A stretch of DNA of 48,431 bases. It comes from an uncultured archaeon. GTDB taxonomy: Archaea; Asgardarchaeota; Thorarchaeia; Thorarchaeales; Thorarchaeaceae. The stretch spans positions 1-48,431 of the forward strand of contig CAZPWM010000016.1 of assembly GCA_964590575.1 (NCBI GenBank), given 5' to 3'. Under the pieces are notes generated by a model. That model had not been told where the DNA came from, searched no databases, and was given only the letters and a program-made list of their open reading frames with translations. Positions 7,061 through 46,656 of the stretch are shown piece after piece. Made by a program: the position numbers and the translations under genes. Each line of letters begins with the position of its first letter. The stretch's first letter is position 1.

Positions 7061-7247
7061 CATACTTAAATGATATGAACCTCCAAGCATAGGAAATGTC
7101 AACCACTCATCCTGACGGTTATCTTGCCACTCCCTCATCGAGCCCCGATACCCCGTTCTGGTACTGCATGCTTGGTGTCATAGCTGTGCTAGCAGTTGTT
7201 TACCTCTATCGAAGAATGCAATGATGATAGACTCTTTTGATGGTCTT
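7061..7247 (+). pseudogene. Chimeric relic: dienelactone hydrolase promoter/5' end joined to a BPL-N-type gene 3' end (42-aa ORF 7096..7224)
   Basis: 7061-7177 aligns with ~11594-11711 (CAT(A/G)CTTAAATGATATGA...ATGTCAACCACTCA...CATGCTTGGTG). 7179-7247 aligns with 6271-6340 (...TATCG(A/G)AGAATGCA...TTTGATGGTCTT). Confidence 0.8.
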
Positions 7248-7260
7248 TTGTAAAGTAAAG

Positions 7261-7286
7261 ATGCAGATTTTGCAGACATCCCTAAA
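7261..7286 (+). repeat. Short copy of the tRNA-Cys upstream repeat
   Basis: ATGCAGATTTTGCAGACATCCCTAAA vs ATGCCATATTTGCCGACATCCTTAAA at ~13247-13272. Confidence 0.5.
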
Positions 7287-7421
7287 TCCAGATTGAGTAA
7301 TATCTGAACTCCACGAATGTTCCAGGAAGAATAAATGCAAGAAAATGCGTTAGTGAACAAGTTTATGGTCACTGGGTTTCAGAATCGACTTAAGGCAGTA
7401 ACCACTCTTTGGGGAATCATC

Positions 7422-8399
7422 ATGAAATCTACAGATAGTACTACAATTCCAGAGATACGCGAGCTAAGGTCAGATGAATCCGATGAATTCGTGACACTCA
7501 TGGAGCTAGCTTTCAAGGACAGCATTGAGGAAGACCGGCTTGACGCAGATGAAGTACGGAAGGTAATGAAGAAGATACGCACGCCTGTCTACAAAGTTCT
7601 TACAAGAGCCATAGGAATGAGGATGGAGTTCTATGTTGCTGAAGTGGAAGACATCATTGCAAGTGGAATTCAATTGAATATTGAGAAGGATGAGGTCTAT
7701 GTGGGTAATCTCATGACACATCCAAAATACCAGCGGCAGGGACTTGCAAGAAAGTTGCTTCATCTAACTTTCAGACGAGCTCGTGAGTTAGATGTGAGGA
7801 AGGTGAGACTTGATGCAAGAGCTGACAATGTCAATGCAGTAAGTCTATACAGCTCGGAAGGTTTCGAGACAACATTTCACTCCGGTCGTTTTGAGTTGGA
7901 CTCTGTGATTGAGAGTACTAAGAGCACTTCTAATGATTTGATTGTCCGCGAAGTCAATAAAATTGCTGTCCCACATATTGACGCAATGCTGGATGATTGC
8001 TTTCCAGCGTCACATCTGGAAGCTAAGGGACGTGAAAAATTCCTCAAGGACTTTATTCCTTCAAGAGCCATACGTTTCTTTGCAGGAAGGCTTGGAGGAC
8101 AGTCAATCCACAACTATAAATTCTATGTGGAGGGAGAGGAGAACCCTCGTGGAATTATCCAAGCATCTCAATCAAGGATTGAACAACGAATTCGCCTTTC
8201 ATCACCGATTCTGTTAGAGAAGGACAACGATTTGCTGTTGGAATTCATCCCGAAGGTTCTCGAAATAGAAACTGGTTATAGCGGAGTAACGACTGCGTCC
8301 ATCAATAGTTCAATGCATCGAACTGATGCTATATCGAAAATTGAGAGCCTTGGTTTCAAGAAATTGCGTGAGAGCATATCTATGACTAAACGACTCTAG
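7422..8399 (+). CDS. GNAT family N-acetyltransferase
   Basis: VGNLMTHPKYQRQGLAR acetyl-CoA motif A and NVNAVSLYSSEGF. Start placed at ATG 7422. Confidence 0.85.
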   Translation: MKSTDSTTIPEIRELRSDESDEFVTLMELAFKDSIEEDRLDADEVRKVMKKIRTPVYKVLTRAIGMRMEFYVAEVEDIIASGIQLNIEKDEVYVGNLMTHPKYQRQGLARKLLHLTFRRARELDVRKVRLDARADNVNAVSLYSSEGFETTFHSGRFELDSVIESTKSTSNDLIVREVNKIAVPHIDAMLDDCFPASHLEAKGREKFLKDFIPSRAIRFFAGRLGGQSIHNYKFYVEGEENPRGIIQASQSRIEQRIRLSSPILLEKDNDLLLEFIPKVLEIETGYSGVTTASINSSMHRTDAISKIESLGFKKLRESISMTKRL

Positions 8400-8406
8400 G
8401 CTATGT

Positions 8407-8469
8407 TTTAGGTGCTGGGCTTACACATCATTCTGTCCATAATACATGCCATTTTTGTCGACATCCTTA
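8407..8469 (+). repeat. 63-bp copy of the tRNA-Cys upstream region
   Basis: Ungapped alignment with 13208-13270, 52/63 identical by manual count. Confidence 0.85.
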
Positions 8470-8518
8470 TATCGAGACTAAGGAATGTTCTCTCAACGGA
8501 GCTGGTTTAGCAGAGGAG

Positions 8519-9373
8519 TTGAAGGAGAATATGGATATTGATGTAGTGAAGCTTAGAGCAGAATATGATAAACCCCATCACCTAATTCAAACGTCAGATG
8601 ATAAAGTTCTGTTCTTACGTAGATGGGTGCCCTCAGTCCCATCAAAAACAGCAATTATCATCTTTCATGGAATTACTGCGTATAGTGGACCCTATGATTC
8701 GTTAGGAAGTCCACTCGCTGAGGCTGGATTTTCTGTGTATGGACTTGATCTACGTGGACATGGTCTTTCTGATGGAGCTAGGGGTGATTGCCCGAGCCAA
8801 ACTCGACTTGTGAATGACTTATGTGAAGCCATCGCCTTTGTCCTAAAACAAGGATTTGAAGGGGTTATTCTCTTAGGGAGTAGTCTAGGTAACCTCGTAG
8901 CATTTGAAGTTCTAGATAATTGCAGTGAGCATGTAACAGGCTTGATTCTACTGAGCCTCGGGAGGACAGCTAAACCTGACGCATACCCCAAAATGTCAAC
9001 TGGAGAGAAATTGAAGACTGTTGGGCAGATAATTTTCGCTAATACGCGTCCAGTCATTGAGTATAAACGGGAGGGAATGGAACGACCAGATGATCCATTG
9101 TTCAATTTCAGATATACGCCCCGTTTTCTGAGAATTCTCAATGCACAGAGATTCATGGATAAGTATCAGTTTCCAGAACAGTTCAAATTCCCAGTTCTCG
9201 TTGGTATTGGGGAACATGATGAGATTTTCTCAGTCGAAACAGCACGTGCCTTCTTTGACGAAGTTCCTAGTGAAAATAAGGAATTCCAGGTAATTCCTGA
9301 AGCAAAGCATGCTGAAACACACGCACTTTGCTCACCTCAGGTAATTGATTGGCTAAAGAAGAATTTCAATTGA
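8519..9373 (+). CDS. Alpha/beta hydrolase (lysophospholipase/monoglyceride lipase-like)
   Basis: IFHGI, DLRGHGLS, GSSLG elbow; Asp (EHDE) and His (AKHA) triad candidates. Confidence 0.85.
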   Translation: MKENMDIDVVKLRAEYDKPHHLIQTSDDKVLFLRRWVPSVPSKTAIIIFHGITAYSGPYDSLGSPLAEAGFSVYGLDLRGHGLSDGARGDCPSQTRLVNDLCEAIAFVLKQGFEGVILLGSSLGNLVAFEVLDNCSEHVTGLILLSLGRTAKPDAYPKMSTGEKLKTVGQIIFANTRPVIEYKREGMERPDDPLFNFRYTPRFLRILNAQRFMDKYQFPEQFKFPVLVGIGEHDEIFSVETARAFFDEVPSENKEFQVIPEAKHAETHALCSPQVIDWLKKNFN

Positions 9374-9398
9374 ACTGTTGGGTAGCAAGTGAGAGTTG

Positions 9399-10949
9399 CT
9401 ATTGTTTCCCATCTGGAAAAGTCTCACGTAGTTCTCGTTTGAGTATCTTCCCTGATATACTACGGGGAAACTCATCGAGAATGAGAACTTGTTGAACTCG
9501 CTGAAACTTTGCTCCAACCCTCTCATTGACCCATTTCATTAGTTCCTCTGGGGTTATCGATATTGAATCTCGTAGTATTACAGCTGCCACAGAAGCCTCT
9601 CCCCATTTTTCATCTGGAACCCCAAAGACTGCTACTTCCTTCACAGATGGATGTTGTGCCACAACCTCCTCGATATCCTTTGGATAGACATTTACTCCAC
9701 CAGAAATAATCATGTCCTTTTTCCGATCCACCAAATTGAGAAAACCATCTTCATCAAGATGACCCAAATCCCCAGAATGAAGCCACCCATCTCTCATGGT
9801 TTCTGCGGTTAATTCAGGGCGTTTGTAGTATTCTGTCATTAATGTGGGTCCTTTTCCTATAATTTCCCCAATCTCTCCAACCGGAACATCTTCGTCATTA
9901 TCATTCACAATTCGCATTTTGAAGAAAGGTGGGGGAATACCTACCGATTGTAGCTTATTGGCACTATGCGTTCTATCTAATACTGTTAGGAAACCTTCTG
10001 TTAATCCATACAGCTCGTAAAACCGATTTGGCAGAAGCTGATTGAGCTTTTCTTTGACATCCATATGTAATGGAGCACCAACAGAGCAGATCATTTCCAA
10101 GGATTCCAAAGCCTCCGCCGAGAAATTCGTGGCATTTAGAATGGCAATTAATTGTGAAGGAACCATAATAACATGAGTGACTTTTTCACGTTGGACTGAT
10201 TCAATGAATTCTTGGGCATCAAACTTGAGTTTTAAAATGAATGTTGCTCCAAGAAACATGGCTGGCATCATAGTAACGAAGGCTCCATTAAACACAATAG
10301 AGCCACTATGAATGATTACACTTTCAGGTGTCATTCTAAAGCTTGATGCAAATAGAGTGGCATAAAACGACCGGACATAATGCGAGAGCACGATGCCCTT
10401 TGGCAGCCCCGTTGTTCCGCTACTATAGATGATATTATAGGGATCATTTTCATCTATTTCTTCAACATCAGGCTCCTTATCGCTAGCTTCTGCTTTGAGT
10501 GATTGATAGTCATTGTACTCCAAATTTGATGAGTCATCAATGAGAACAAATTCATCAACATTAGTCAATTCATGTTTGATCTCTTCTAGAATGCTCATAT
10601 ACTGAGAACTCGTTATGACAATCTTGGCATCAGAATCATTGATGAGTGATTTAAATCCACGACTCATGAGTAATGTACTTAGCGGTACCGATACTGCACC
10701 GATTTTTGCAATAGCCCAATACAGTTCAAGCAATTCAAAACAATTAGGCAGGACAATTGCTATTTTATCTCCCTTTTCTACACCTAAACCACATAGCATA
10801 TTAGCTACGCGATTAACACCCTTGTTAAACTCCTGATATGAAAGTCGGATGTTCTCAACAATTATTCCAAGATGATCTGGACGATATTGAGCATTCCTAG
10901 TCAATAGCATTCCAATGTTAACAGGATGGAACGGAGGAGATTTCGACAT
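9399..10949 (-). CDS. Long-chain fatty acid--CoA ligase / AMP-binding enzyme
   Basis: YSSGTTGLPKG, YGLTE, WLHSGD, DRKKDMIISGGVNVYP, SGKILK. Confidence 0.92.
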   Translation of the reverse strand: MSKSPPFHPVNIGMLLTRNAQYRPDHLGIIVENIRLSYQEFNKGVNRVANMLCGLGVEKGDKIAIVLPNCFELLELYWAIAKIGAVSVPLSTLLMSRGFKSLINDSDAKIVITSSQYMSILEEIKHELTNVDEFVLIDDSSNLEYNDYQSLKAEASDKEPDVEEIDENDPYNIIYSSGTTGLPKGIVLSHYVRSFYATLFASSFRMTPESVIIHSGSIVFNGAFVTMMPAMFLGATFILKLKFDAQEFIESVQREKVTHVIMVPSQLIAILNATNFSAEALESLEMICSVGAPLHMDVKEKLNQLLPNRFYELYGLTEGFLTVLDRTHSANKLQSVGIPPPFFKMRIVNDNDEDVPVGEIGEIIGKGPTLMTEYYKRPELTAETMRDGWLHSGDLGHLDEDGFLNLVDRKKDMIISGGVNVYPKDIEEVVAQHPSVKEVAVFGVPDEKWGEASVAAVILRDSISITPEELMKWVNERVGAKFQRVQQVLILDEFPRSISGKILKRELRETFPDGKQ

Positions 10950-11007
10950 AGATTACCCCTCTAGTGAAATGACCGTAGCATATCCACGATGAAAAACTTT
11001 CCGTAAA

Positions 11008-11436
11008 CTAATCTAAGATAATGGGTGAATCCTGAAAGTACCCCTTGAAAAGTAGAACGATAAGTGGAAGAAGGATGCAGATATCTAGAGCGCTGAGTGG
11101 TAAGAGGAACCAGACTGCAACCAGTGATACTCCTGTAACAAGAAATGCCATCCAAAGTCCCTTCGTTCGATTTAGTAAAATCCAGTATCCTGACCAGATT
11201 CGTAAGCCTGCAAAGAAGAAGAAAATGGGGATGAATATTACAGGCATTGTATGCATGAGCATTCCAACTTCCGTTGTCACTGGAATGAACAATTCAGAGA
11301 TGTTTGGAATCAAGCCTATAGAAATCATGACCATAGCGGCAACATCCATTAGTTCAAACAGCCCGTAGAATAGCTGGAGTACTCCTGCCCAGTACAATGA
11401 CCTATTCTCTCTTATTTTTACATCTACCCAAAACAT
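11008..11436 (-). CDS. Small multi-pass membrane protein
   Basis: Four hydrophobic segments; GGAGG upstream of ATG at 11436. Confidence 0.65.
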   Translation of the reverse strand: MFWVDVKIRENRSLYWAGVLQLFYGLFELMDVAAMVMISIGLIPNISELFIPVTTEVGMLMHTMPVIFIPIFFFFAGLRIWSGYWILLNRTKGLWMAFLVTGVSLVAVWFLLPLSALDICILLPLIVLLFKGYFQDSPIILD

Positions 11437-11607
11437 CCTATAACCTCCTAATGTTTCCCATTCCTTTTCGGATAATACATTATACACCTTTTTTGTTAAT
11501 CCTCAAATGTTTTTCTCATTCTTTCATTCAGCCCTGACGCTATTCTCTTAATCTGTAGTGGCTTTTCACAAGCCTATTGTTGAGGACTTCAGGCATGCTT
11601 AAATGAT

Positions 11608-12333
11608 ATGACAAGCAAGGAGCAGAAAATGTCAACCACTCAACCTGATGGTTATCTTGCTGTTCCTTCGTCCGGCCAAGGTGCTCCGGTCCTAGTACTA
11701 CATGCTTGGTGGGGATTGAATAGAACTATAATGGACATCTGTGATAATCTAGCAAAAGCAGGTTTCCTTTCTTTTGCCCCAGACCTTTATCATGGCAAAA
11801 TCGCAGACACCATTTCCGATGCTGAAGTGTTGAGCTCAGCTCTTGACGATAACTACTTGCAAGCCAAAGCTGAGATTGCCGAGGCAGTCAAATTTCTGTG
11901 TGAAAAGACGGGAACAAAAGGTCGTGATGTATCTGTGGTCAGTTTCTCACTAGGTGCATATTACGCACTGGATATAGCGGCATCGGATCCCGAACACATT
12001 GATTCCGTTGTCTTGTTTTACGGTTCTGGACCTGTCGATCACAGCACATCAAAAGCACGATATCTTGGTCATTTTGCAGAGAATGACCCTTACGAGTCAA
12101 AGGAAAATGTAGAGGAGCTAGAAGAATCGTTGAAGAAGGCTGGTCGCCCAGTGACGTTTTACATCTATGAGAATACTGGACACTGGTTCTTTGAACCCGA
12201 CCGTCAAGACGCCTATGATGAAGCAGCAGCTCAACTAGCTTGGAAACGGACCTTGGAGTTTCTTAACACTACTAAAGGAGACAAGCAGACAAATAGACCG
12301 ATAAGACATGTTCAGAGAATTGACCAGGAATAA
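11608..12333 (+). CDS. Dienelactone hydrolase family protein
   Basis: VLVLHAWWGL, APDLYHG, SFSLG, LFYG, GHWFFE, AAQLAWKRTLEF. Start may be ATG 11629. Confidence 0.9.
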   Translation: MTSKEQKMSTTQPDGYLAVPSSGQGAPVLVLHAWWGLNRTIMDICDNLAKAGFLSFAPDLYHGKIADTISDAEVLSSALDDNYLQAKAEIAEAVKFLCEKTGTKGRDVSVVSFSLGAYYALDIAASDPEHIDSVVLFYGSGPVDHSTSKARYLGHFAENDPYESKENVEELEESLKKAGRPVTFYIYENTGHWFFEPDRQDAYDEAAAQLAWKRTLEFLNTTKGDKQTNRPIRHVQRIDQE

Positions 12334-12412
12334 TAATTGCCATAACCGTTGTTTCAGAAGATCTGAATGCTGCTAAGGATATTTACAAGAGCGTCTTTGT
12401 GATTACCTGAGG

Positions 12413-12436
12413 TTTTGCCGACATCCTAAAAACTAC
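12413..12436 (+). repeat. Short copy of the tRNA-Cys upstream repeat
   Basis: TTTTGCCGACATCCTAAAAACTAC vs TTTGCCGACATCCTTAAAACAAAAAAAACTAC at 13255-13286. Confidence 0.7.
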
Positions 12437-12449
12437 TAATGAGTCAAAA

Positions 12450-12512
12450 ATCTCAGCTGAGATGGTTTGCCGTCAATTTCGGATAATAACAAAACATAAA
12501 CTATTGTCCGAA
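12450..12512. promoter_or_regulatory. Palindromes upstream of the HXXEE gene (candidate operators)
   Basis: Perfect ATCTCAGCTGAGAT (12450-12463) and TTCGGATAATA-N13-TATTGTCCGAA (12478-12512). Confidence 0.4.
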
Positions 12513-12551
12513 TTCTGAATGTATGAACTTGGTTTCTGCGAGGAAAAGAAA

Positions 12552-13205
12552 ATGGGGTTCTTTCGAAATAATTGGTATTATATTGGCGGCATAATCTTTG
12601 TGGCGTTGGCATACTTCATTGGTTTTTTTGATGGCGATATCAGTCCGATACAACGAATCCTGATTTTGAGTTTTATGGCTTTGCTAGTACATCAATTTGA
12701 GGAATATGGCCTTCCGGGCGGCTTTCCTGCCATTTACAATATTGTACTATCGGGAGAAGTTGAGGCACCTGACCGGTACCCGCTAAATAGTAACAGTGCC
12801 TTTATCATCAATGTGTTCCTCGCATATCCGTTGTATATTCTGGCGATTATTTTTCCAGAACTGATTTGGTATGGAATCGCAACAATGTTGTTTGGTATCG
12901 CCCAAATTTTTGTACATGGGTTTGTGGTCAATGCTAAAATGAAGTCGTTCTATAATCCCGGTCTGGGCACAGTCGTTTTCTTGCATATTCCCATTGGGCT
13001 CTATTATTTCTGGTTTATAACTGTAAATGAACTCGTACAACCATGGCACTGGATTGCAGGTCTTATCTGCCTCCCGATATTCGCTTTTCTTGCTATTGCT
13101 CTGCCTTCCAAATTGCTACAGAATAAAGAATCGCCTTATTCATTTTCAGAACCAGAGATGAAAAGATTTAATGTACTGGAAAAGATGACGAATCGGAATA
13201 AATAG
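12552..13205 (+). CDS. HXXEE domain membrane protein
   Basis: LVHQFEEY..PGGF and YNPGL motifs; multiple TM helices. Start placed at ATG 12552. Confidence 0.88.
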   Translation: MGFFRNNWYYIGGIIFVALAYFIGFFDGDISPIQRILILSFMALLVHQFEEYGLPGGFPAIYNIVLSGEVEAPDRYPLNSNSAFIINVFLAYPLYILAIIFPELIWYGIATMLFGIAQIFVHGFVVNAKMKSFYNPGLGTVVFLHIPIGLYYFWFITVNELVQPWHWIAGLICLPIFAFLAIALPSKLLQNKESPYSFSEPEMKRFNVLEKMTNRNK

Positions 13206-13207
13206 CA

Positions 13208-13272
13208 TTTAGGAGTTGAGATCACACTTCCTTCTGTCCAAAATGCATGCCATATTTGCCGACATCCTTAAA
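13208..13272 (+). repeat. tRNA-Cys upstream region (master repeat copy; includes TATA-like CCTTAAAA about 30 nt before the tRNA)
   Basis: Shared with 8407-8469, 12413-12436 and 7261-7286. Confidence 0.75.
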
Positions 13273-13301
13273 ACAAAAAAAACTACCCAAGGGTTAAGCG
13301 A

Positions 13302-13377
13302 GCCGGTTTGGCGGAGAAGTTTACGCGACAGCCTGCAGAGCTGTTCTACCTGGGTGCAAATCCCAGAGCCGGCTCCA
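13302..13377 (+). tRNA. tRNA-Cys (GCA)
   Basis: Acceptor GCCGGTT/AGCCGGC; anticodon arm ACAGC-CTGCAGA-GCTGT (GCA at 13335-13337); T arm CTGGG-TGCAAAT-CCCAG; U discriminator; encoded CCA. Confidence 0.95.
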
Positions 13378-13399
13378 CTTTTCCTAGAGGAATTATTTT

Positions 13400-13777
13400 T
13401 TACCTGACATTGTTGATAGCATTCTTTGCTGTGTCATGTTTGACTTTCATTATATTTGACACTAGAGTGAATTGCCGATTTTGTTGCTGCATGTCCTGTT
13501 GAAGTTGAAGATACTGTAAATTGAATGACTGCTGCATCTTCAGAACTTCTTCCGTTACCTTTTTTTCCTTTAGTAGTTTTTCGCCTAGAATAGACAACTT
13601 CTCAAGTTCTTTACACGAGCTAGCAAGCCATTTATTGTATCGTTCCAGTTCTGACATCTGTCTGCGTTCCAATCCTTTGGGACCTCTTTGTTGCGAAAGT
13701 TTGTGTAGAACCTGTCTTGTTTCCCGAAGTATTTTGACACGTTTTCCTACTAGTCTTCTATCTACCACCGTAACCAC
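13400..13777 (-). CDS. Helical protein with a Gln-rich C-terminal motif (secretion-filament subunit-like)
   Basis: C-terminus SFNLQYLQLQQDMQQQNRQFTLVSNIMKVKHDTAKNAINNVR; coiled-coil character. Confidence 0.65.
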   Translation of the reverse strand: MVTVVDRRLVGKRVKILRETRQVLHKLSQQRGPKGLERRQMSELERYNKWLASSCKELEKLSILGEKLLKEKKVTEEVLKMQQSFNLQYLQLQQDMQQQNRQFTLVSNIMKVKHDTAKNAINNVR

Positions 13778-16137: not shown

Positions 16138-16233
16138 CCTTTTTAGAGATTTACATTGTAAGGACCATTCAGCGCAAAGAAAGATAAGGAAGATAGATGA
16201 ATAATTGAACATCATCTAGGAGCGTGGTCAAAG

Positions 16234-16614
16234 ATGAGCGGGGAACTCCCCAGTTTTGCGAAGTATGTCTTTCTGTTAGGCTTCATAGTGTCCGTGATTA
16301 TGGGCGGCTGGTCTTTTCTATCTCCAGAATCATGGTGTGCTATTACTGAGTGGCCGACTGAAATTGTTTCAGTCCGTGTCGTAGGTGCGCTGCTTCTCAC
16401 TCTCGCAGTTGCTGCAATTCTAGCATTTCGTGCGAAATCATGGAAAGAAGTTGAACTCTATGTCCTGACGATCATTTGCTTTTCAATCCTAGGAGCAGTT
16501 GCAATGGTCTGGGATATTGCAGTCAATGGCCTTCCTCTTATTGGCTTGCTTAATACTGGTCTGCTTGTGCTGTTCTTTGTATTGTACACCTATGTTTACT
16601 ATCGGTGCAAGTGA
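16234..16614 (+). CDS. Small 4-TM membrane protein
   Basis: Four hydrophobic helices; clean ATG-TGA ORF. Confidence 0.7.
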   Translation: MSGELPSFAKYVFLLGFIVSVIMGGWSFLSPESWCAITEWPTEIVSVRVVGALLLTLAVAAILAFRAKSWKEVELYVLTIICFSILGAVAMVWDIAVNGLPLIGLLNTGLLVLFFVLYTYVYYRCK

Positions 16615-25299: not shown

Positions 25300-26382
25300 T
25301 CACTTCTTCCTATTCAAAGCAACAACAAGAACAACTATGATGATGCTTCCTCCTGAAATCGCTGAAATCAGGACCACATCAATAGCCGCAGTTGGCTCTA
25401 ATCCCACCTCAAAGATTTCAGCTTCTTTGACTACTTCAAGTGTTGAATTGGAGTCTTCAACTTCGATGTCCATAACATATCCGCCGTCTTCCATACCGAT
25501 GAAGAAGCCAGTGTAGTTTCCATCTTGGTTACCGTCCTGAAGTTCCACAGTATCAATCAGTGTTCTGTTGCCATAACCATATACTCGCGCTATCACTTCT
25601 TGAACACTTGTTGACAGTATATCGCCAAGGGTATCATTCAAATCGTCGATGACGGCACTTATCGTAAAATTAGTGCCAATAGGTCCCTTGAAAGGAGCTA
25701 GTACCGACTCTGCGACTCTTGACAATCCAAGACATTCCCTGATAACTTCTGCACAGACTTCTGATGTAGAAGCTTCAAGCCATCCCCCTCCACCTGTTCC
25801 TCCACCTGATCCTCCTGTGATTATTGAACCATCTGCAACAGCCTCTACACCTAATACTGTTGTTGCTCCTGCTCCCAACATTTTTGGAGCACTTAACATG
25901 AATTCAACAACCTTACTTCCATTCACGATTTCATTGGCTTCTGCAACAACCCGCGTCCCAGTGCAGATTGAAGCTACTACCAAACCTAGATCAAACGCGT
26001 CTGAAATGAAATTCAATACCACACTACTTCCGATTAAGAACGACCATTGACCACCTGAAGAAACAAGGAGACAATCGAACTGCAAAACCATATCAGTTGT
26101 CATTTCGGATAACAAGAGGTCAGCTACAATTGGTCTTGGTTCCCTGTTTAAGCAAGAATCAATATTGTAGTCAATTGAATATGCAACCGTTGTTACATTG
26201 ACTCCCCACGTTTCAAGATGATCTTTTGCATCGAAGTAGTTCCAGCCAAATCCATCACACACTAATATCAGGACTTTGACATCTGATATGTCCGGTGTAT
26301 CTAATGCGGATACTGAAAGAGGATTCGAGAATGTAAGTCCAAAGACTAGTAGTGTTGTAACTAGCAGCAATTTCCATTTCAT
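25300..26382 (-). CDS. Surface-anchored DJ-1/PfpI family protein
   Basis: Signal peptide, VLILVCDGF, LLVSSGG, VASICTG nucleophile, beta-rich domain, C-terminal TM followed by NRKK. Confidence 0.8.
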   Translation of the reverse strand: MKWKLLLVTTLLVFGLTFSNPLSVSALDTPDISDVKVLILVCDGFGWNYFDAKDHLETWGVNVTTVAYSIDYNIDSCLNREPRPIVADLLLSEMTTDMVLQFDCLLVSSGGQWSFLIGSSVVLNFISDAFDLGLVVASICTGTRVVAEANEIVNGSKVVEFMLSAPKMLGAGATTVLGVEAVADGSIITGGSGGGTGGGGWLEASTSEVCAEVIRECLGLSRVAESVLAPFKGPIGTNFTISAVIDDLNDTLGDILSTSVQEVIARVYGYGNRTLIDTVELQDGNQDGNYTGFFIGMEDGGYVMDIEVEDSNSTLEVVKEAEIFEVGLEPTAAIDVVLISAISGGSIIIVVLVVALNRKK

Positions 26383-26548
26383 ATTAATCGAACATTGGTC
26401 CGATTCCTACTATATTAGGGATAGATTCTACGCTGCACCTAAGAAAAAGGGAATGGCAGCATTATGTATATCTCCAGTTTTCCTAGAGATCCTGACTGAA
26501 TTATTACCAGAGAAGAAGATTCATAGCGCGAGTATTAAAAATGTGAAT

Positions 26549-27304
26549 TTAGTCTTCAAGAATTCTGTACCAGTAAGTGTACATTGTTTTGAATCCCATT
26601 GTCTTGTATAGATTTAATGCAGGAATGTTCTCTGCTTCGACCTGCAAAAAGACTTGTTTAGCTCCAAGGTCTTCACCCCACATTGCAAGTGCGCAGTTCA
26701 CCGACCATGCTACTCCTCGACGCTGGAACTCTGGAAGTGTTCGAATAGAGAATAATCCGAGCCACTCTTCTTCAACCACTCCCAATCCTACACCTGCGAT
26801 ATGTCCATGCATCATAACTCGTGCAATATTCTTGGCTCCTGCAATACGGTGAATGATCTCTCGTCTTACGTCAATTGCTCTTTTCTCTCTCTCTGATTTA
26901 TACATGAGCGTGTTCAGCGAGTCATCGGTGACCTTGAATAGGTCAACTGGCAAACGAGGGTCTAGACATGATACACTCTCAATTGGTGCAGTCTGAACAT
27001 GTGTTACCATTCGCTGTTTGAAACCCTTTTCTTCCAGTATTTCATCAAGTCCTTTTGGTTGACTTGCTGGCGATATTTTGAATGCTGGTGGCGTGTCCCT
27101 TTCCCTGTATAATTCAATTACATAGTCGATCATTTGTTCGATTCCAACTTTGCTCTCCCATCTATATGGAAGAACACAATTAGCCCTCCATGTAACTGCA
27201 TCATTCCAATGGATAATCCATCCTTTGTAATTAACAATCTCTCTCGCAGGCCAACAATGTGATGCCAAGAGTTCTAATTCTCCAATCTCATGCTCTGACA
27301 TCAT
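26549..27304 (-). CDS. GNAT family acetyltransferase
   Basis: WPA..., RAN, TLPEFQRRGVA, LQVEAENIPALNLYKTMGF. Confidence 0.88.
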   Translation of the reverse strand: MMSEHEIGELELLASHCWPAREIVNYKGWIIHWNDAVTWRANCVLPYRWESKVGIEQMIDYVIELYRERDTPPAFKISPASQPKGLDEILEEKGFKQRMVTHVQTAPIESVSCLDPRLPVDLFKVTDDSLNTLMYKSEREKRAIDVRREIIHRIAGAKNIARVMMHGHIAGVGLGVVEEEWLGLFSIRTLPEFQRRGVAWSVNCALAMWGEDLGAKQVFLQVEAENIPALNLYKTMGFKTMYTYWYRILED

Positions 27305-27439
27305 AATCGTTTGATAGTAGTTACTGCCTAAAATCTTGCCTCTTTGCAGCGAAGTGCCAATATTTAGTATCATTATTCTGATTCAGGTGTTGTCCGATAC
27401 ACCACTTGTACCATATAATCCATCAAGCAAAACACCTTT

Positions 27440-29686
27440 GTGATGCCTTCTCATTGTTGGACTGAGGAAGTCGTAGTGAGTCCTGCACTCAACGAGATTG
27501 CATGGTCAATATTGAGTGGTTTCCATAAAACACTCGCTTCCGATTCATCATTACGTTCAAAGAGTACCCTCCAAATAACGGAAGCCTCAAGACTTGCTGG
27601 GCTCACCTATATCTTATCTTCTCAACTAAAGGAGAACTTCTACTCATTTAGCCACCTCTCATATGAGGCTGAGCGTTTAGGAGTATCTCGGGAGGTTGTT
27701 ACGAATCTTGCTAATGAGGTTTTAGACTCATTTAGTTTCCCGATTTCTGAAACGCTTGATACCATTGAACTAGTGACCCTTCTTGGCATTATTCATTCAT
27801 TAGGTTGTTACCATCTTCCCTTAACATATAATGAAGGAACATCTCAGAAACCCCTTGGGGGATATTACACTCCCTCTGTGATTGCCGATTACATTGTTTC
27901 ACTCACATTATCTCCAACATTGGAACGTCTTGCAAAGAATGCATCAAAAAAAGGAGTCGCTGCATTGCAGGAGATTCTTTCTCTTCAAACTCTTGACCCC
28001 GCATGCGGTGCTGGAGTGTTTCTTATTTCGTCAATGAATGCCTACGATAGAGCAATGAAAAAAGGGATACAGAATGCTCTTGATGGCGGCACAAGGCGTC
28101 AAGCGCTTAAAGACTCTGGAGTTTTAGATTACAGACAGAGGATACGTCGCAACATGTATGGCGTTGACATTGACTCTGGAGCTCTTGAGGTGACTGATGT
28201 ATCGCTACGTTTACTCTCTCAGGATCAGATTGGTGGCTTGAATGAATCATCGTTAGGTGATTCGCTCAAACAAGGCAACTCTCTAATCTCTCTAACTGGT
28301 ATGAACGGACAATCTGACCATCGTCATTACTTCTCAAGTTCAGATTCACGTTTGCCTTTTGAGTGGAATGATGAATTTGGTGGAATCTTAGAGAATGGTG
28401 GTTTTCACTTCATTGTGATGAACCCACCCTACGAGCGATTGAAACCGAATCTCGCGGAATTTCTGAGAGAGCGTCTTCTGTCGGGAGAACGAGAAATCCA
28501 CATGGAGAACTTTTCAAAATACAAAGAACAGCTAAGCGAGGATGTCAGATATTTTCGAGATTCAGGTGTGTATCATTTAGGTAACAGATATGCTATAGAT
28601 ACACACAGATTGTTTGTAGAACGTACTCTCCAGTTAGCTCGTGAGGGGGGCACTATTGGTTTCATAGTTCCCTCGACCATTCTTGGTGATCTATCTTCAC
28701 AACCATTGAGATATTCCCTCATCCGAGAAAACAAACTCCGAACAATAGATGATTTTCCCGAAACCTCGCGACTCTTTGAGGGTGTCACTCAATCAGTAAC
28801 TGTGATTACACTTGAACGCGGGGGAACTACTAGATCTTTCTCTGCTAAATTTGGTCTCAAGGATATTGATGAAGCAAAATCAAGAAAACCTATTCATATA
28901 GAAGCTAGGAAGATCGAAAGTGCAGCCGGTCCTTCGTTGTCGATTCCTCAGGTGGATAAAGTTGGCTGGAGATTACTGTACAAGCTTCATAGTCAACCAT
29001 CTATATCATCTCTAAATTGGTTGGCAGTGAAACGAGGTGAGCTAGATCTCACTCTGGACAAGGAGTGCATCACGTATGATCCAACTGCCTTTCGTCTGGT
29101 TAGGGGTTCTAATATCTCTCGATATACATTGAGTGATCGAAAGAATAAACATCCCGAGTATGTAGATATTGAACAACTTAGGACGAAGTTAGGAGAGTCT
29201 CCAAGAGCCAATCACATCCATCGGAATAGAATTGCTTGTCAACAAGTTTCTAATAGGACCCAAAGATGGCGATTGAAGTTTGCATCTATCCCTCCAAATT
29301 TTGTATTAGCCAACTCCTGCAATTATCTAGTTAGCCATGATCATTCTATTAAATCTACTATGTTGCTTCTCCTTGGTATCCTGAACTCCGAATTACTGAA
29401 CTGGAGGTTCAACCTTACAAACACCAACAACCACGTTTCTAATTGGGAGCTTGCGCAATTACCTCTAGTTAACTTGGAGACATCCACGTCCCGCGACATC
29501 AGAGCCCAGCTGATAAAGGAAGTAAGGAAGGTGAAAACGGACGACATCACACCCAGGATTGAGGCTCTAGTCTTTGCTCTCTACGGTTTCTCAATTAATG
29601 AAACAAAGACTCTTTTGGAAATGCGTTTGACCCCGGAACCTGAGATTAGTGCAATTATGAATGAATTACGGTCTCTAGACTTCTGA
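27440..29686 (+). CDS. N6-adenine DNA methyltransferase (gamma class; Alw26I/Eco31I/Esp3I-like)
   Basis: GGYYTP (X), LDPACGAGVFL (I), YGVDID (II), IVMNPPY (IV); C-terminal TaqI-like TRD (NSCNYL...LLGILNSELLNWRF). Confidence 0.88.
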   Translation: MMPSHCWTEEVVVSPALNEIAWSILSGFHKTLASDSSLRSKSTLQITEASRLAGLTYILSSQLKENFYSFSHLSYEAERLGVSREVVTNLANEVLDSFSFPISETLDTIELVTLLGIIHSLGCYHLPLTYNEGTSQKPLGGYYTPSVIADYIVSLTLSPTLERLAKNASKKGVAALQEILSLQTLDPACGAGVFLISSMNAYDRAMKKGIQNALDGGTRRQALKDSGVLDYRQRIRRNMYGVDIDSGALEVTDVSLRLLSQDQIGGLNESSLGDSLKQGNSLISLTGMNGQSDHRHYFSSSDSRLPFEWNDEFGGILENGGFHFIVMNPPYERLKPNLAEFLRERLLSGEREIHMENFSKYKEQLSEDVRYFRDSGVYHLGNRYAIDTHRLFVERTLQLAREGGTIGFIVPSTILGDLSSQPLRYSLIRENKLRTIDDFPETSRLFEGVTQSVTVITLERGGTTRSFSAKFGLKDIDEAKSRKPIHIEARKIESAAGPSLSIPQVDKVGWRLLYKLHSQPSISSLNWLAVKRGELDLTLDKECITYDPTAFRLVRGSNISRYTLSDRKNKHPEYVDIEQLRTKLGESPRANHIHRNRIACQQVSNRTQRWRLKFASIPPNFVLANSCNYLVSHDHSIKSTMLLLLGILNSELLNWRFNLTNTNNHVSNWELAQLPLVNLETSTSRDIRAQLIKEVRKVKTDDITPRIEALVFALYGFSINETKTLLEMRLTPEPEISAIMNELRSLDF

Positions 29687-29738
29687 AACCTAGCAATGTC
29701 TTACAAAGATTTTACATACAACCCGAGACTAGTCGGCT

Positions 29739-30971
29739 GTGAATTCCATCTCTCATGCAGCATTAGAACTAGAAGTAGTTGAAGCATCGAAGATGCTGTA
29801 TAATCATGTGTGTTCTTCCCTAAGCGAGCTTGACATGGAGATGATTCAATCAGTTCCTGCAGGAGGGAACTGGCAAGATATACCCCAGAGAATCATTAGG
29901 AAATCAGCACGACTTACGCAAATTCACAAATCTGGTGGGCGAACAACGTACTATGGGCGTTTGAAGAACAATCTGCCTAGTTATACTATAAACACTTACT
30001 TCAATCGTCCAGGGAATGGGACCTTCATACATCCTGAACAGGACCGACTCATATCAATGCGTGAAGCTGCCCGGCTGCAATCCTTTACAGATAGGTTCAG
30101 GTTCCTTGGGAGTCTAAGTTCAAGATACAAGCAAATAGGAAATGCAGTCCCACCATTGTTAGCACGAGCTGTGGCCAATCTCTTGAAACCTGGTCTCGTT
30201 GTCGATTTATTTTCAGGGGCTGGGGGTCTCTCAGAGGGTTTTGTTCAAGCTGGAAACGAGATAATTCTTGCAACTGACTCCAATTCTAATATGTGCAAGA
30301 CCTATAGCCACAACCATCCAACTACAAAAGTAATCCGAGCTGACCTACATTGCACGAATCAATCAAATGAGCTTCTTGAAGCGATTGAGGGAACACTTAA
30401 TGGAACACATCTGAACACGATAATTGGTGGACCCCCCTGTCAAGGATTTTCTACCGCTGGCAACCGAAATGCATTAGATTCCAGGAACAATCTTGTTTTT
30501 CGAATGCTTGAGTTTGTTGATACATTGATGCCTGATAGTGTTGTAATTGAAAATGTTCCAGGATTACAATGGATGCATCAAGGTCAGGTTATTGATGCAA
30601 TTGTGAAAAAACTTGAAGAATTCGAATATACAGTCATCAGTCTTAAATTACAAGCTGAAGCATTTGGTGTCCCGCAGAGAAGGAAACGTATTTTCATCAT
30701 TGGTCAAAGAAATGGAGAACCTGCTGGTATACCAACTGGTTTTTTTGCCCCCATTATTCGAGGAAAAACTAGAGCTGATACAAAACTCGGTAGTATGGAT
30801 CTGCCACCGCCAATGAGTGTATCTGAAGCGATATCTGACTTGCCAGAGATCACTTCTGGTGGCGGCGAAGAGTTAATCGAGTATTGCGAGAAATGGACCG
30901 AAACAGACTATCAGAAACTAATGCGTGAATCGATAACATATGATGATTTCATCATTAAGAGAACCGAATAA
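29739..30971 (+). CDS. Circularly permuted C5-cytosine DNA methyltransferase
   Basis: TRD and motifs IX/X (RLISMREAARLQSF; KQIGNAVPP) precede motif I (DLFSGAGG), IV (GGPPCQGFS), VI (ENV) and VIII (PQRRKR). Confidence 0.92.
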   Translation: MNSISHAALELEVVEASKMLYNHVCSSLSELDMEMIQSVPAGGNWQDIPQRIIRKSARLTQIHKSGGRTTYYGRLKNNLPSYTINTYFNRPGNGTFIHPEQDRLISMREAARLQSFTDRFRFLGSLSSRYKQIGNAVPPLLARAVANLLKPGLVVDLFSGAGGLSEGFVQAGNEIILATDSNSNMCKTYSHNHPTTKVIRADLHCTNQSNELLEAIEGTLNGTHLNTIIGGPPCQGFSTAGNRNALDSRNNLVFRMLEFVDTLMPDSVVIENVPGLQWMHQGQVIDAIVKKLEEFEYTVISLKLQAEAFGVPQRRKRIFIIGQRNGEPAGIPTGFFAPIIRGKTRADTKLGSMDLPPPMSVSEAISDLPEITSGGGEELIEYCEKWTETDYQKLMRESITYDDFIIKRTE

Positions 30972-44458: not shown

Positions 44459-44654
44459 GAAAAGAGGAAAGCGGTGCATCCCCATAGGAGATGCTCCGAC
44501 TCTCGACATTAAATGATTCCTTCTTGCTTTCCGACCCCTCATAGGCCGCTAGTGCAATGTCTAGCTGCTCCTTGGTCAGACCTGAGTTCATCATGTTTCG
44601 GATTCTGGCCTTGTCACGTGCTACCATCGGGAACACAATGGATGATGCGAGGAT
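44459..44654 (-). pseudogene. Relic 1 of the kbl-type gene 3' end plus terminator
   Basis: 44509-44654 matches 47766-47912: IVFPMVARDKARIRNMMNSGLTKEQLDIALAAYE-(1-nt deletion)-VGKQEGII*. Hairpin 44472-44498 and pyrimidine tail on the minus strand. Confidence 0.92.
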
Positions 44655-44712: not shown

Positions 44713-46440
44713 ATGAATAGAGGAGAGCTTCTTTCGAAACTAGAGAAGTCAAAATTCGATCTCGCACTATTAATCATTGTTTTTCTTCTGATATTTTCAA
44801 GTCAGATTCTTACTACACAACTGCTCCGTGGTTATGGTACAATTATAGTTACAGATGGTGCTGCAATTCCACAGGAGAGTAACTACACAATATCAACAGA
44901 ATTTAGTACATCAGTTACAACCGCAGTGGTGTTCAATTATACTCTGGATAAGTACTCTGGAGTATCTTTCAATGTGATTACAGATAATGTTAGTAGATTT
45001 TGCTTCAATATAACACTACAATCTACCCAGAACAATACAGATGTTAATGTATTAGTTGGTCTAGGTTACAGAGAAACATTCGACATTATGGTTGGAACAA
45101 CCCCCACTATTGTTTCGCTTGAGCTAAATATGACCGCTGTTCATTCGAATCCTGGGAATTGGATCCAGCCATGTCGTGTTCTCTTCACGACTGATGTTCC
45201 ACTCGAATTCAAGAATGTCCTTTTATGGGCTGAATTTGATACTCCTGTTTCTCCTGTTATCTTGAATTGGCAGTCGACAGATGGAAACCCCTTATTTGCC
45301 AATCCTTACACATCACAGCTAGGTACATTCAGACCTGAACTCGGAATAAAACGTCAGAATGATAGTTTTTATGATAGTTTTGATGCATTCTTTCAGAATC
45401 GCACATTATACCTACGACCACAGAATTATAGTATGAGAGCTACCTGGGGAGGTGATATTTCTTCTATTCCTGAATTCTATCTATCCATCACTGAGAATTC
45501 TTCGACAATCTGTACCTTGAGAATGAAAGCTGTGAGATTATCCTTCTCAATTGATCAGAAGATACCTTTGATCCATCTGCAGATTATGACTCGGGATTTT
45601 CCTTCCTATTATATCTATAATCTTTACTTTCAAGATTCAGAAAAACCAGAATTCTTGTTTATTCCTCCCATTTATGATGGTATATCGATATGGTTCGATT
45701 CAATGGATCCGCTTTCAAGTAATTTGAGATGGTACGCGGATTGTGGGGCACTTAAAAGCATTCCAGCAAATGGTACATATCATCAGAATATCAAAATCCA
45801 GATGCCTTACTGGTACTTCTTTGGATTTATTGTCACTCAGCTAGATTTCATCCACTTGTCAGTAGCGATGATTCTGTTTTCACTTGTTATTATCAGGACT
45901 TATATCTATCTCAGTCAAAAGAAACCTAGAGGTTCTTGGCGAAACCCTCATTTCATTCCGGCAATCATCTTAGGCTTAACTACCTTCATGCCTTGGTTTT
46001 ATAGCATCCGTGAAACGGTGAATGTTTTCGATACAACAATCCATGTTGCAGCATTTGGTACCTTTCCACTTGTCACGAGCTGGACTGATTCAGGAATTGT
46101 CTTCTTAGACATACCTCCTAGCGGAATCTACTGGGCAATCTTGTCTTTGTTCATGTTCTGGTTTCCATTGATTTGCTTCATATATGGAGCGACTCCTACC
46201 AGGGATTATGAAAAGGAAGCATCAATACTTTTGTTCCTACCATATCTATACCTAATCGCTCTAGAGATTGGACTTGGTAAGCTTTACACGTTTGCATTTG
46301 ACCAAAATTCAGTCATCCCAGTTCTATCCCTATTGATTCCATCACTTACAGTCTCTTACTTAATCCTGAAAGAGTTGATGGATTACGTGAAAAAAGAAAA
46401 AGTGGTGGGCACCTCACAAGACGGTGCTCCACGGCAGTAA
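44713..46440 (+). CDS. Large membrane protein, paralog of 38172..40415 (shorter C-terminus)
   Basis: Shared motifs (SPVILNWQSTDG vs CPVTVDIRSTDN; YLRP; PWFYSIR; GTFP..WT; FWFPL). Confidence 0.78.
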   Translation: MNRGELLSKLEKSKFDLALLIIVFLLIFSSQILTTQLLRGYGTIIVTDGAAIPQESNYTISTEFSTSVTTAVVFNYTLDKYSGVSFNVITDNVSRFCFNITLQSTQNNTDVNVLVGLGYRETFDIMVGTTPTIVSLELNMTAVHSNPGNWIQPCRVLFTTDVPLEFKNVLLWAEFDTPVSPVILNWQSTDGNPLFANPYTSQLGTFRPELGIKRQNDSFYDSFDAFFQNRTLYLRPQNYSMRATWGGDISSIPEFYLSITENSSTICTLRMKAVRLSFSIDQKIPLIHLQIMTRDFPSYYIYNLYFQDSEKPEFLFIPPIYDGISIWFDSMDPLSSNLRWYADCGALKSIPANGTYHQNIKIQMPYWYFFGFIVTQLDFIHLSVAMILFSLVIIRTYIYLSQKKPRGSWRNPHFIPAIILGLTTFMPWFYSIRETVNVFDTTIHVAAFGTFPLVTSWTDSGIVFLDIPPSGIYWAILSLFMFWFPLICFIYGATPTRDYEKEASILLFLPYLYLIALEIGLGKLYTFAFDQNSVIPVLSLLIPSLTVSYLILKELMDYVKKEKVVGTSQDGAPRQ

Positions 46441-46540
46441 TTTATATGATTTTGATTCGTTTTCCAACCTTCTCATAGGCAGCCAGAGCAATGTCTAGCA
46501 GCTCCTTGGTCAGACTAGAGTTCATCCTGTTTCTGATTCT
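46390..46540 (-). pseudogene. Relic 2 of the kbl-type gene 3' end plus terminator
   Basis: 46442-46540 reads RIRNRMNSSLTKELLDIALAAYEKVGKRIKII*. Hairpin ~46402-46432, shared CAGTAAT spacer and T-rich tail. Confidence 0.9.
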
Positions 46541-46656
46541 AGTGAAAGGGCTTCCTACGGATTTGTTATCATAGTCTAGAATATGTATTGCACTGCCATT
46601 TCTTGCGCGAATCTAAATCTCTTTTTATTGATACTAGTTTGACAAGTTGGGTGGAA

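Follow-up and report, generated by a model that had tools for sequence, protein, structure and literature searches.

Displaced copies of a tRNA-Cys promoter and gene start stacked between accessory genes in a genome of the Thorarchaeaceae

The region described here lies in a 48,431-nt stretch of DNA, called the window below, from an uncultured archaeon (Asgardarchaeota; Thorarchaeia; Thorarchaeales; Thorarchaeaceae; assembly GCA_964590575.1, contig CAZPWM010000016.1, positions 1 to 48,431, forward strand). The window contains a single tRNA gene, tRNA-Cys (GCA), preceded by accessory genes, and a segment resembling the promoter and start of this tRNA gene recurs at the boundaries between them. 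The four copies, numbered from the one farthest upstream, and the tRNA gene are arranged as follows:

7269 to 7304, + strand: copy 1, the putative oldest stub, with core 7269-7284 (TATA-like CCCTAAAT) and 20 nt of leader
8407 to 8520, + strand: copy 2, with flank 8407-8453 (47 nt), core 8454-8469, leader 8470-8500 and degenerate tRNA-Cys bases 1-20 at 8501-8520
12414 to 12472, + strand: copy 3, with core 12414-12429, leader 12430-12460 and degenerate tRNA-Cys bases 1-12
13208 to 13301, + strand: copy 4, the working tRNA-Cys promoter, with flank 13208-13254 (47 nt), core with TATA box 13255-13274 and leader to 13301
7281-7288, 8466-8473 and 12426-12433, + strand: TATA boxes of copies 1, 2 and 3
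13302 to 13377, + strand: tRNA-Cys (GCA), anchor of the array and the window's one tRNA gene (ARAGORN; Rfam RF00005, 53 bits)

Copies 2 and 4 share 63 nt (8407-8469 and 13208-13270) at 83% identity, that is 52/63 positions in a repeat search, exactly as reported in a first-pass annotation of this DNA. A 20-nt core occurs four times on the same strand, at 7269, 8454, 12414 and 13255; the first-pass annotation had correctly seen the core and its orientation in the shorter copies, but had placed them at 12413 and 7261 rather than 12414 and 7269. The degenerate 16-mer TTTGYMGACATCCYWA has four matches in the window against 0.02 expected (0/100 shuffles reach four), and all four of its matches in the whole 3.40-Mb assembly lie at the tRNA-Cys locus. 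Each copy stands ahead of a + strand gene, as had been noted: a GNAT acetyltransferase gene at 7335, an alpha/beta hydrolase gene at 8519/8531, the gene of an HXXEE-motif protein at 12519 and tRNA-Cys itself at 13302. What had been missed is that the copies run past the TATA box into the leader, and copies 2 and 3 into tRNA bases. The tRNA fragments of these two copies are direct repeats of 12-20 bases; together with leader and promoter they precede the intact gene and share its orientation. The similarity in copy 3 may extend to about 12482, and tRNA bases are not recognisable in copy 1.

The comparison with relatives is based on 28 genomes of the genus: the window's own genome (G000, 91% complete, 194 contigs) and 27 others, all of them metagenome bins. 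When tRNA-Cys and its upstream region were used as a query against 41 genomes, 20/41 were matched, and the matches reaching upstream of the tRNA all came from the same genus. In 15/15 loci from 15 genus genomes, the core lies 47-48 nt ahead of the first tRNA base and is followed by a TATA-like CCTTAAA(A/T) and then by a leader of about 30 nt that varies strongly between species. This position identifies the core as the tRNA-Cys promoter of the genus. With at most two mismatches, an 18-mer core is found at 27 places in the 28 genomes, comprising 17 functional promoters, nine stubs and one other. The motif is thus local to tRNA-Cys, as first proposed, with 4/4 matches in the window's genome at this locus and 26/27 in the genus being tRNA-Cys promoters or stubs. 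The remaining match, with two mismatches (G009, contig C156), is apparently coding, lacks leader or tRNA similarity and is taken as chance. Two control tRNAs, Lys-ctt and Gly-tcc, show upstream conservation of similar length within the genus, so a conserved core is nothing unusual for a tRNA promoter here. Both tRNA-SeC and tRNA promoters of the TATA type were found, a combination that fits an Asgard archaeon.

The 47-nt flank of the 63-nt repeat also occurs ahead of the working tRNA-Cys in G011 and ahead of the outermost stubs in G006 and G009, and the strain in sequencing run X5 carries a diverged form of it at copy 2. On these comparisons the 47 nt are an older promoter-proximal flank, as in G011, and the first-pass view of the 63-nt segment as an old promoter segment is refined accordingly. 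A metagenome scan with the core gave 118 stretches, including nine added loci in which the core is followed by tRNA-Cys, with a single copy within the ≤2 kb of each; one locus (L075) agrees with the window over the stretch compared, on a contig that begins inside the HXXEE gene. The sequencing-run data (X1, X4, X5 and X20) are assembled contigs. Logan contigs of run X1 span each of the four copies with zero differences; X1 is possibly the window's own source, so this agreement is not independent support.

Each displaced copy resembles a working gene start in another species. Copy 1 matches the working leader of G020 at 18/20 positions after the core, over the leader only; copy 2 matches the leader and tRNA start of G016 at 41/50 positions, through tRNA base 20; and copy 3 those of G006 at 36/43, through tRNA base 12. 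In all three cases 0/300 shuffles score as well. The leaders fall into types, copies 1 and 2 grouping with G020, G016 and G022, copy 3 with G006 and G005, and copy 4 with G003 and G011, the G003 leader being the closest; each type precedes functional tRNA-Cys genes of different species. To judge from these alignments, the four repeats are one working and three displaced copies of the tRNA-Cys transcription start region, which comprises flank, B recognition element (BRE)/TATA core, leader and first tRNA bases. A further candidate stub in G005 (oriented position 9826) is left out of all counts; beyond the core, 299/300 shuffles score as well.

The genes between the copies, and two further features of these intervals, are:

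7061 to 7177, + strand: stub of a dienelactone hydrolase (DLH) gene, promoter region and about 27 first codons, paralogous to 11594-11711
7335 to 8399, + strand: cargo 1, GNAT acetyltransferase, 354 aa (PF00583, 2.7e-12)
8519 to 9373, + strand: cargo 2a, alpha/beta hydrolase, likely start ATG 8531 (PF12146, 1e-35)
9399 to 10949, − strand: cargo 2b, AMP-dependent ligase (PF00501, 2e-79)
11008 to 11487, − strand: cargo 2c, open reading frame (ORF) of 159 aa, no Pfam match
11608 to 12333, + strand: cargo 2d, intact DLH (PF01738, 3e-40)
12476 to 12512, + strand: hairpin with an 11-bp stem, between the copy-3 tRNA stub and the HXXEE gene
12519 to 13205, + strand: cargo 3, the putatively newest, HXXEE-motif protein (PF13787, 1e-17)

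Gene content on both sides of tRNA-Cys differs strongly between species, as the first-pass annotation had anticipated. Two stubs and a working copy are present in G006, two stubs in G009 and one in G016, while G003, G013, G001, G002 and G022 have a single copy (≥6 kb upstream examined). The stubs that precede the same hydrolase gene in G006, G009, G018 and G021 are orthologues of copy 2; in all five species the stub comprises promoter, leader and tRNA bases 1 to about 26, the leader being deleted in G021, and the hydrolase start codon follows about 10 nt beyond it. Stub lengths differ among copies (0, 10, about 12-20 and about 26 tRNA bases).

Relatives also preserve arrangements that would precede an insertion. 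In G022 the promoter and tRNA come directly after a minus-strand luciferase-like monooxygenase (LLM) gene, and the leader and tRNA start there are identical to the G009 stub at 46/48 positions; judged from this similarity, the arrangement is the state expected before the hydrolase-ligase block arrived. G006 and G009 contain that block; the stub followed by the hydrolase start is present in G018 and G021 too. Similarly, the flank of the outermost stub of G006 and G009 stands directly before the working tRNA in G011, again a pre-insertion state. In G006 and G009 the ligase gene abuts the working promoter, and the G006 leader is of the copy-3 type, so the HXXEE block with copy 4 was the last addition in this lineage. 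The order from oldest to newest is DLH and copy 1; GNAT and copy 2; hydrolase, ligase, (ORF, DLH) and copy 3; HXXEE, copy 4 and the tRNA. The distribution of the cargo fits this order, the tRNA-proximal HXXEE gene having no close genus counterpart and the distal blocks being common to other species. As these relatives show, the locus has very probably grown by at least three successive insertions between the resident promoter and 5′ end and the body of tRNA-Cys, each block bringing its own genus-type tRNA-Cys promoter module at its tRNA-proximal end. By the same comparison, the new module took over the tRNA, and the older one, pushed upstream, came to stand directly before the first gene of the inserted block.

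Accretion upstream of tRNA-Cys, the central proposal of the first-pass annotation, is thus borne out by the local motif, the variable gene content and the relatives in which the displaced copies correspond to once-working promoters. Its corollary that each insertion leaves the old promoter segment is right as to the promoter, but the unit left behind is larger: promoter, leader and up to about 26 nt of tRNA.

GNAT orthologues occur in 5/27 other genus genomes at 76-79% identity; in G004 the orthologue is followed by a decayed core-like sequence and in G023 it is preceded by a DLH piece. The hydrolase is 92% identical to that of G009 and 76% to that of G006, its ATG at 8531 lies 10 nt past the tRNA stub, and its start ATGGATATTGATG aligns across five species. 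The ligase is 91-94% identical to the G006 and G009 genes, which adjoin the functional tRNA-Cys promoter there. The cargo 2c ORF is missing at the corresponding place of both genomes and gives the impression of encoding a putative membrane protein. The intact DLH (cargo 2d) shares 79% identity with one that lies some 9 kb upstream of the array in G006. HXXEE has a single match in the 27 other genus genomes, at 31% identity; its homologues with a named source are all bacterial (54-58% identity), and one further protein is 93% identical. In contigs of runs X4 and X5 the sequence differs from the window upstream of 13248, a point just ahead of the module, and the X4 contig is identical to the window over 13251-13700. 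Overall, the cargo genes encode accessory enzymes of ordinary kinds: hydrolases, ligase, beta-lactamase-fold, luciferase-like, flavodoxin, GNAT and methyltransferases. Base composition at 5-16 kb gives no foreign signature (GC 0.38-0.45).

A second repeat, overlooked in the first pass, joins 7061-7177 and 11594-11711 (73-85% identity; repeat families D2 and D17) and corresponds to the DLH promoter and first codons. A DLH stub therefore stands ahead of copy 1, as the intact DLH stands ahead of copy 3. Past the DLH stub, 7178-7225 resembles by eye the 3′ end of a BPL_N-like gene that lies immediately upstream of GNAT in G004 (L272), which suggests a possible further old junction. Between DLH and copy 3, 12335-12409 is a short open frame with a terminal stop that recalls the N-terminus of a glyoxalase/VOC protein and may be a gene remnant.

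Displaced pieces also occur on the other side of the gene. On the tRNA-Cys contigs, 8/8 5′ stubs, from four genomes, lie upstream and 3/3 3′ stubs downstream, all on the strand of the working gene; the 3′ stubs, of 25-34 nt, are those of G005, G006 and G011. A second full-length tRNA-Cys is present in G006 3.3 kb downstream of the working one (contig C25, L027, oriented 16223-16350), with a degraded TATA box and two changed acceptor-stem bases, and a 25-nt 3′ stub lies between the two.

The same geometry is seen at other genes. In G000, partial tRNA copies on the same strand and contig as their tRNA have 3′ pieces downstream (Thr-tgt 2, Glu 1, Leu-cag 1) and 5′ pieces upstream (Thr-cgt 1) in 5/5 cases. 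The DNA between these tRNAs and their pieces encodes DUF3800, octopine dehydrogenase with a B12-binding protein, an old-yellow-enzyme homologue and a TnpB-like ORF, and contains no integrase. Opposite-strand partial matches (Gly-ccc 1, Gly-tcc 2, Leu-tag 1) are left aside, since they may be pieces of unannotated tRNAs. On a reading of the match tables, tRNA-Gly(tcc) has 3′ pieces downstream in six genomes of the genus and 5′ pieces upstream in two, and the tRNA-Lys loci obey the same rule. One contig of G012 carries three promoter and 5′ stubs of tRNA-Gly(tcc). No integrase was found among 18 ORFs in five tRNA-Gly loci.

Several of these loci have features of their own. On contig C6 of G000 (25816-30288, L267), the last 33-39 nt of tRNA-Thr(tgt) recur twice beyond the gene on its own strand (95% and 100% identity), and these copies bracket the DUF3800 gene and the octopine-dehydrogenase/B12-binding pair; no integrase is present. 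On contig C11 (27391-29671, L270), a TnpB/Cas12f-like ORF separates tRNA-Thr(cgt) from a 22-nt copy of its 5′ end, and a TnpB/Cas12f-like ORF also adjoins tRNA-Gly on contig C27 of G001 (L282). Matches to tRNA-Lys(ctt) are broken by about 30 nt after base 31 in G004, G006, G021 and others, not in G000, which suggests an intron present in some members of the genus and absent from others. G004 has two tandem tRNA-Lys(ctt) copies 1.1 kb apart.

A protein-coding gene shows a related footprint. At the window end, the last ~145 nt of a kbl-type aminotransferase gene (PF00155) recur twice downstream on the same strand, each copy following an inserted + strand ORF without Pfam match (44713-46440 and 46588-47580). 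This is the kbl case to which the first-pass annotation likened tRNA-Cys; its copies show the footprint known from tRNA genes, with 3′ stubs downstream:

44510-44654 and 46472-46588, − strand: copies of the kbl 3′ end, at 85-89% and 65% identity
47766-48431, − strand: the kbl-type gene

Searches for a recombinase gave the following. PF00589 has no match (0) in the six-frame translation of G000. It is present in 8/28 genus genomes at 20 places, many on short contigs, and in none of these 20 loci is a tRNA or tRNA piece found within the short flanks examined. It is undetected in 20/28 genomes, G000 included, which therefore show no XerA-like gene, while the same search matched 14/14 control genomes. 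PF16795, the archaeal SSV-type family, was found in 0/28 genus genomes, and no split int(N)/int(C) is present. A Pfam scan of 11 window ORFs (six within 7335-13205 and five flanking) detected no recombinase, serine recombinases having no separate search. The 93 ORFs around the tRNA-Cys loci of relatives and the 15 + 18 ORFs at other tRNA loci include no recombinase family, two TnpB-like ORFs being the only transposon-type proteins at the latter. Neither an integrase nor an int fragment lies beside any stub, the abutting sequence consisting of cargo gene starts or ends, and no characteristic integrase or replication module, whole or in fragments, was found in the cargo, in G000 (PF00589) or in the tRNA-Cys flanks of relatives. 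An attP site on viral or plasmid DNA was also sought: 21 viral contig stretches carry the 17-mer core, but 0/21 have tRNA-Cys, so these are chance 17-mers.

How the blocks arrived is less certain than that they did. In Campbell insertion, one crossover on circular DNA duplicates the homologous segment on both sides of the insert, with no dedicated recombinase. At the tRNA-Cys locus, the crossover would take place between the promoter-tRNA module on incoming, probably circular DNA of related Thorarchaeota and the resident module. The redundant upstream copy would erode, its promoter kept and its tRNA body lost, and no dedicated integrase would be needed. It is proposed that the stub promoter is retained because it transcribes the captured gene. 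Selection could likewise account for the geometry, if promoters persist where they read into cargo and 3′ ends with their terminators where they follow it.

This Campbell-type insertion-duplication by host homologous recombination is given an even chance of being the mechanism and is favoured over a site-specific integrase. The incoming module (flank, core and leader) exceeds 90 nt and is of genus type; the second full tRNA-Cys of G006 is a duplicate of the whole module; no recombinase was found, the targets are many and the stub ends variable; and the footprint extends to several other tRNAs and to the protein-coding kbl.

Several observations weigh against it. Full-module insertion predicts two whole tRNA copies at first, yet most copies are truncated, and all truncations obey an att-type rule, with 5′ stubs upstream and 3′ stubs downstream. 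A plain serial model is also insufficient. Upstream of copy 2 lie GNAT and the 47-nt flank in G000 but the minus-strand LLM gene in G006 and G009, and the latter two have the functional-promoter flank in common but different leaders; both differences require further exchanges or conversions at the module. Since the genomes are metagenome bins, elements with an integrase may have dropped out at the binning stage. The contigs of X1, X4, X5 and X20 show no joints, circles or empty sites, an absence that means little in assembled contigs. Finally, contigs from an RNA-library run lie on the GNAT, hydrolase and ligase genes, but they belong to a relative (90-97% identity) and so do not demonstrate transcription or transcription starts in the window.

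The main rival, possible but less probable, is that the stubs are attL-type scars of site-specific elements which, like pTN3-like elements, used the tRNA-Cys promoter and 5′ part as attachment site, and which have lost their integrase or are cargo-only cassettes mobilised in trans by one encoded elsewhere, for instance on an unbinned plasmid or virus. The strict geometry speaks for it, 8/8 and 3/3 stubs on tRNA-Cys contigs, 5/5 partial tRNAs in G000 and the tRNA-Gly and tRNA-Lys loci of the genus all conforming. Parts of published accounts provide precedents for the use of a tRNA 5′ half (pTN3-like integrases, PMC8371274; AveSNP6_IE1, PMC7253208; Caldiarchaeum, PMC3293823) and for tandem accretion with decayed elements (tycheposons, 10.1101/2020.12.28.424599). 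However, no tyrosine recombinase is detected in G000 or in 20/28 genus genomes altogether, the SSV type is found in 0/28, and the 20 integrase loci of the genus lack tRNA pieces. No int remnant lies beside the stubs, and the hydrolase gene begins about 10 nt past one of them. Moreover, targets as varied as tRNA-Cys, Gly, Lys, Thr, Glu, Leu and kbl would demand many specificities, and the stub ends are not fixed.

An improbable and disfavoured alternative is the in-place tandem duplication of a segment [DLH - promoter - gene - flank - promoter], with later replacement of the inner gene and no imported modules. It would explain why the succession of DLH (or its stub), core, ORF and 63-nt segment appears twice, at 7061-8469 and 11594-13270. 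Yet GNAT and HXXEE come from unrelated families, the latter without a close genus counterpart (one 31% match in 27 genomes); the four leaders are of different types, each with a functional counterpart in a different species; and copy 2 with the hydrolase is common to four other species that lack such a unit structure. The weakest explanation, a convergent transcription-factor site or shared promoter type that co-regulates the accessory genes with tRNA-Cys, is very unlikely and is disfavoured by the apparently tRNA-derived bases: although the 18-nt core is invariant or near-invariant before tRNA-Cys in the genus and has one or two changes in each of five copy-2 orthologues, the similarity runs through the non-conserved leader into tRNA bases, which is not expected of a binding site, the motif occurs nowhere else in the genome, and the Lys and Gly control tRNAs are conserved upstream to a similar length.

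The first-pass annotation had also considered a small mobile element with inverted ends TTTAGG...CCTTAAA. This is not supported: the ends are of 6 nt, the left one is not conserved in relatives, the segments fold like shuffles (z +1.10, +0.17) and the motif is not dispersed. Copies of a miniature inverted-repeat transposable element would be scattered, but all (4/4 genome-wide) lie at one locus. A structured RNA or attC site was rejected as well. Rfam detects the tRNA alone, and the inter-gene segments fold no better than shuffles (z +1.10, +0.17 and +0.45) except at copy 3, where 12414-12518 has z = -2.68 and 1/200 shuffles folds equally well; the hairpin there has no counterpart at the other junctions. 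An 18-codon minus-strand ORF with the same start and stop in both 63-nt copies is taken as chance, because 9/18 residues agree against 11 nucleotide changes and its ATG comes from the invariant core.

That tRNA genes are insertion sites associated with partial copies is well known (parts of PMC9897764). In an Islander-type definition, as given in parts of PMC4383910 and PMC9897764, a displaced tRNA fragment and the regenerated gene make up a direct repeat, the fragment delimiting the insert; the insert contains a tyrosine (or serine) integrase gene, usually near its tRNA-proximal or -distal end. The window has the displaced fragment but no integrase. Integration into the 5′ half of a tRNA gene is known but rare. 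Parts of one report (PMC8371274, citing Cossu et al., 2017) describe pTN3-like integrases that use this half and state that the displaced part is readable from the old tRNA promoter, and parts of another (PMC7253208) describe one case of 5′-end integration, AveSNP6_IE1. In the pTN3-like elements of Thermococcales (SSV family), as in the window, the tRNA gene is split near its 5′ part, the displaced piece keeps the native promoter and the restored tRNA is served by a promoter of the insert; all eight tRNA-Cys stubs are likewise 5′ parts lying upstream. These elements differ in that the attP-bearing integrase gene is split into int(N) and int(C), neither of which is present in the window. The imported promoter of the window is a copy of the tRNA-Cys promoter, not an integrase promoter, and its inserts are one to four ordinary metabolic genes, with three stacked stubs, in an Asgard lineage.

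In Caldiarchaeum subterraneum, a 5′ fragment of tRNA-Thr(GGU) is found 1.8 kb ahead of the functional gene, and a recombinase gene stands between the two (parts of PMC3293823). The arrangement shares with the window the upstream 5′ fragment, the inserted DNA in between and, according to parts of the same source (PMC3293823), a locus that is heterogeneous in a natural population. Its insert carries a DNA recombinase gene and is present at six genomic places, whereas the window has no recombinase and its copies are undispersed. The partial tRNAs left by tycheposons are as a rule 3′ pieces. Tandem accretion of tycheposons with decayed elements takes place at tRNA genes of Prochlorococcus (parts of 10.1101/2020.12.28.424599). 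By that partial account, both systems show repeated integration at one tRNA, older inserts pushed further away, partial tRNAs between cargo and niche-adaptive accessory genes, but tycheposons carry integrases and leave fragmented ones in their islands, in contrast to the promoter and 5′ scars of the window, which has no integrase remnant.

Compared with Campbell insertion as such, what would be particular here is a promoter-tRNA module of about 100 nt as a repeated natural docking site, followed by erosion to stubs, which was not found in the literature searches. The genus-type module of copy 4 and the full duplicate of G006 agree with it, yet most copies are truncated and no circular or fresh intermediate is present in the run contigs. 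Integron arrays, archaeal ones included, consist of promoter-proximal single-gene cassettes with the newest beside the insertion point, and depend on IntI and attC hairpins. The tRNA-Cys array is stacked in the same way, with its newest block beside the insertion point, but the window has no PF00589 or attC hairpins, and the repeat derives from the tRNA promoter and tRNA. In the literature consulted, including the main text of PMC8813620 and PMC11529989, both in part, no case was found of tRNA promoter and 5′ stubs stacked before captured genes without an integrase.

The TATA-like boxes of the stubs are intact, and each stub stands ahead of a + strand gene. In the five species with copy 2, one or two of its 18 core positions are changed, while the leader varies freely or is missing, a pattern of conservation which suggests that this stub is the predicted promoter of the hydrolase gene. 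That the stubs more generally drive their cargo genes is plausible. A broader proposal, offered tentatively and doubtful as yet, is that conserved gene ends in Thorarchaeota are docking modules for an integrase-free exchange of cassettes by host homologous recombination. The docking ends would be a tRNA promoter with the 5′ end, a tRNA 3′ end with its terminator, or the 3′ end of kbl. Cassettes between two modules could loop out to form circles, pass from cell to cell and dock at the corresponding module of any relative, and displaced tRNA promoters and terminators would be domesticated as expression signals of captured genes, some of them bacterial in origin.

For the acquisition of bacterial genes by Asgard archaea, a recurrent entry point at a tRNA gene would make gene flow testable; the entry point would be a tRNA gene whose promoter is copied in with each insert and then reused for the captured gene. 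The stubs also bear on annotation: gene callers pass over such pseudo-promoters and pseudo-tRNA starts, which can serve to order acquisitions and to delimit them. Should recombinases play no part, additive gene islands could be built from nothing more than short conserved housekeeping sequences, and cassette exchange, if true, would amount to a functional analogue of the integron made only of housekeeping sequences.

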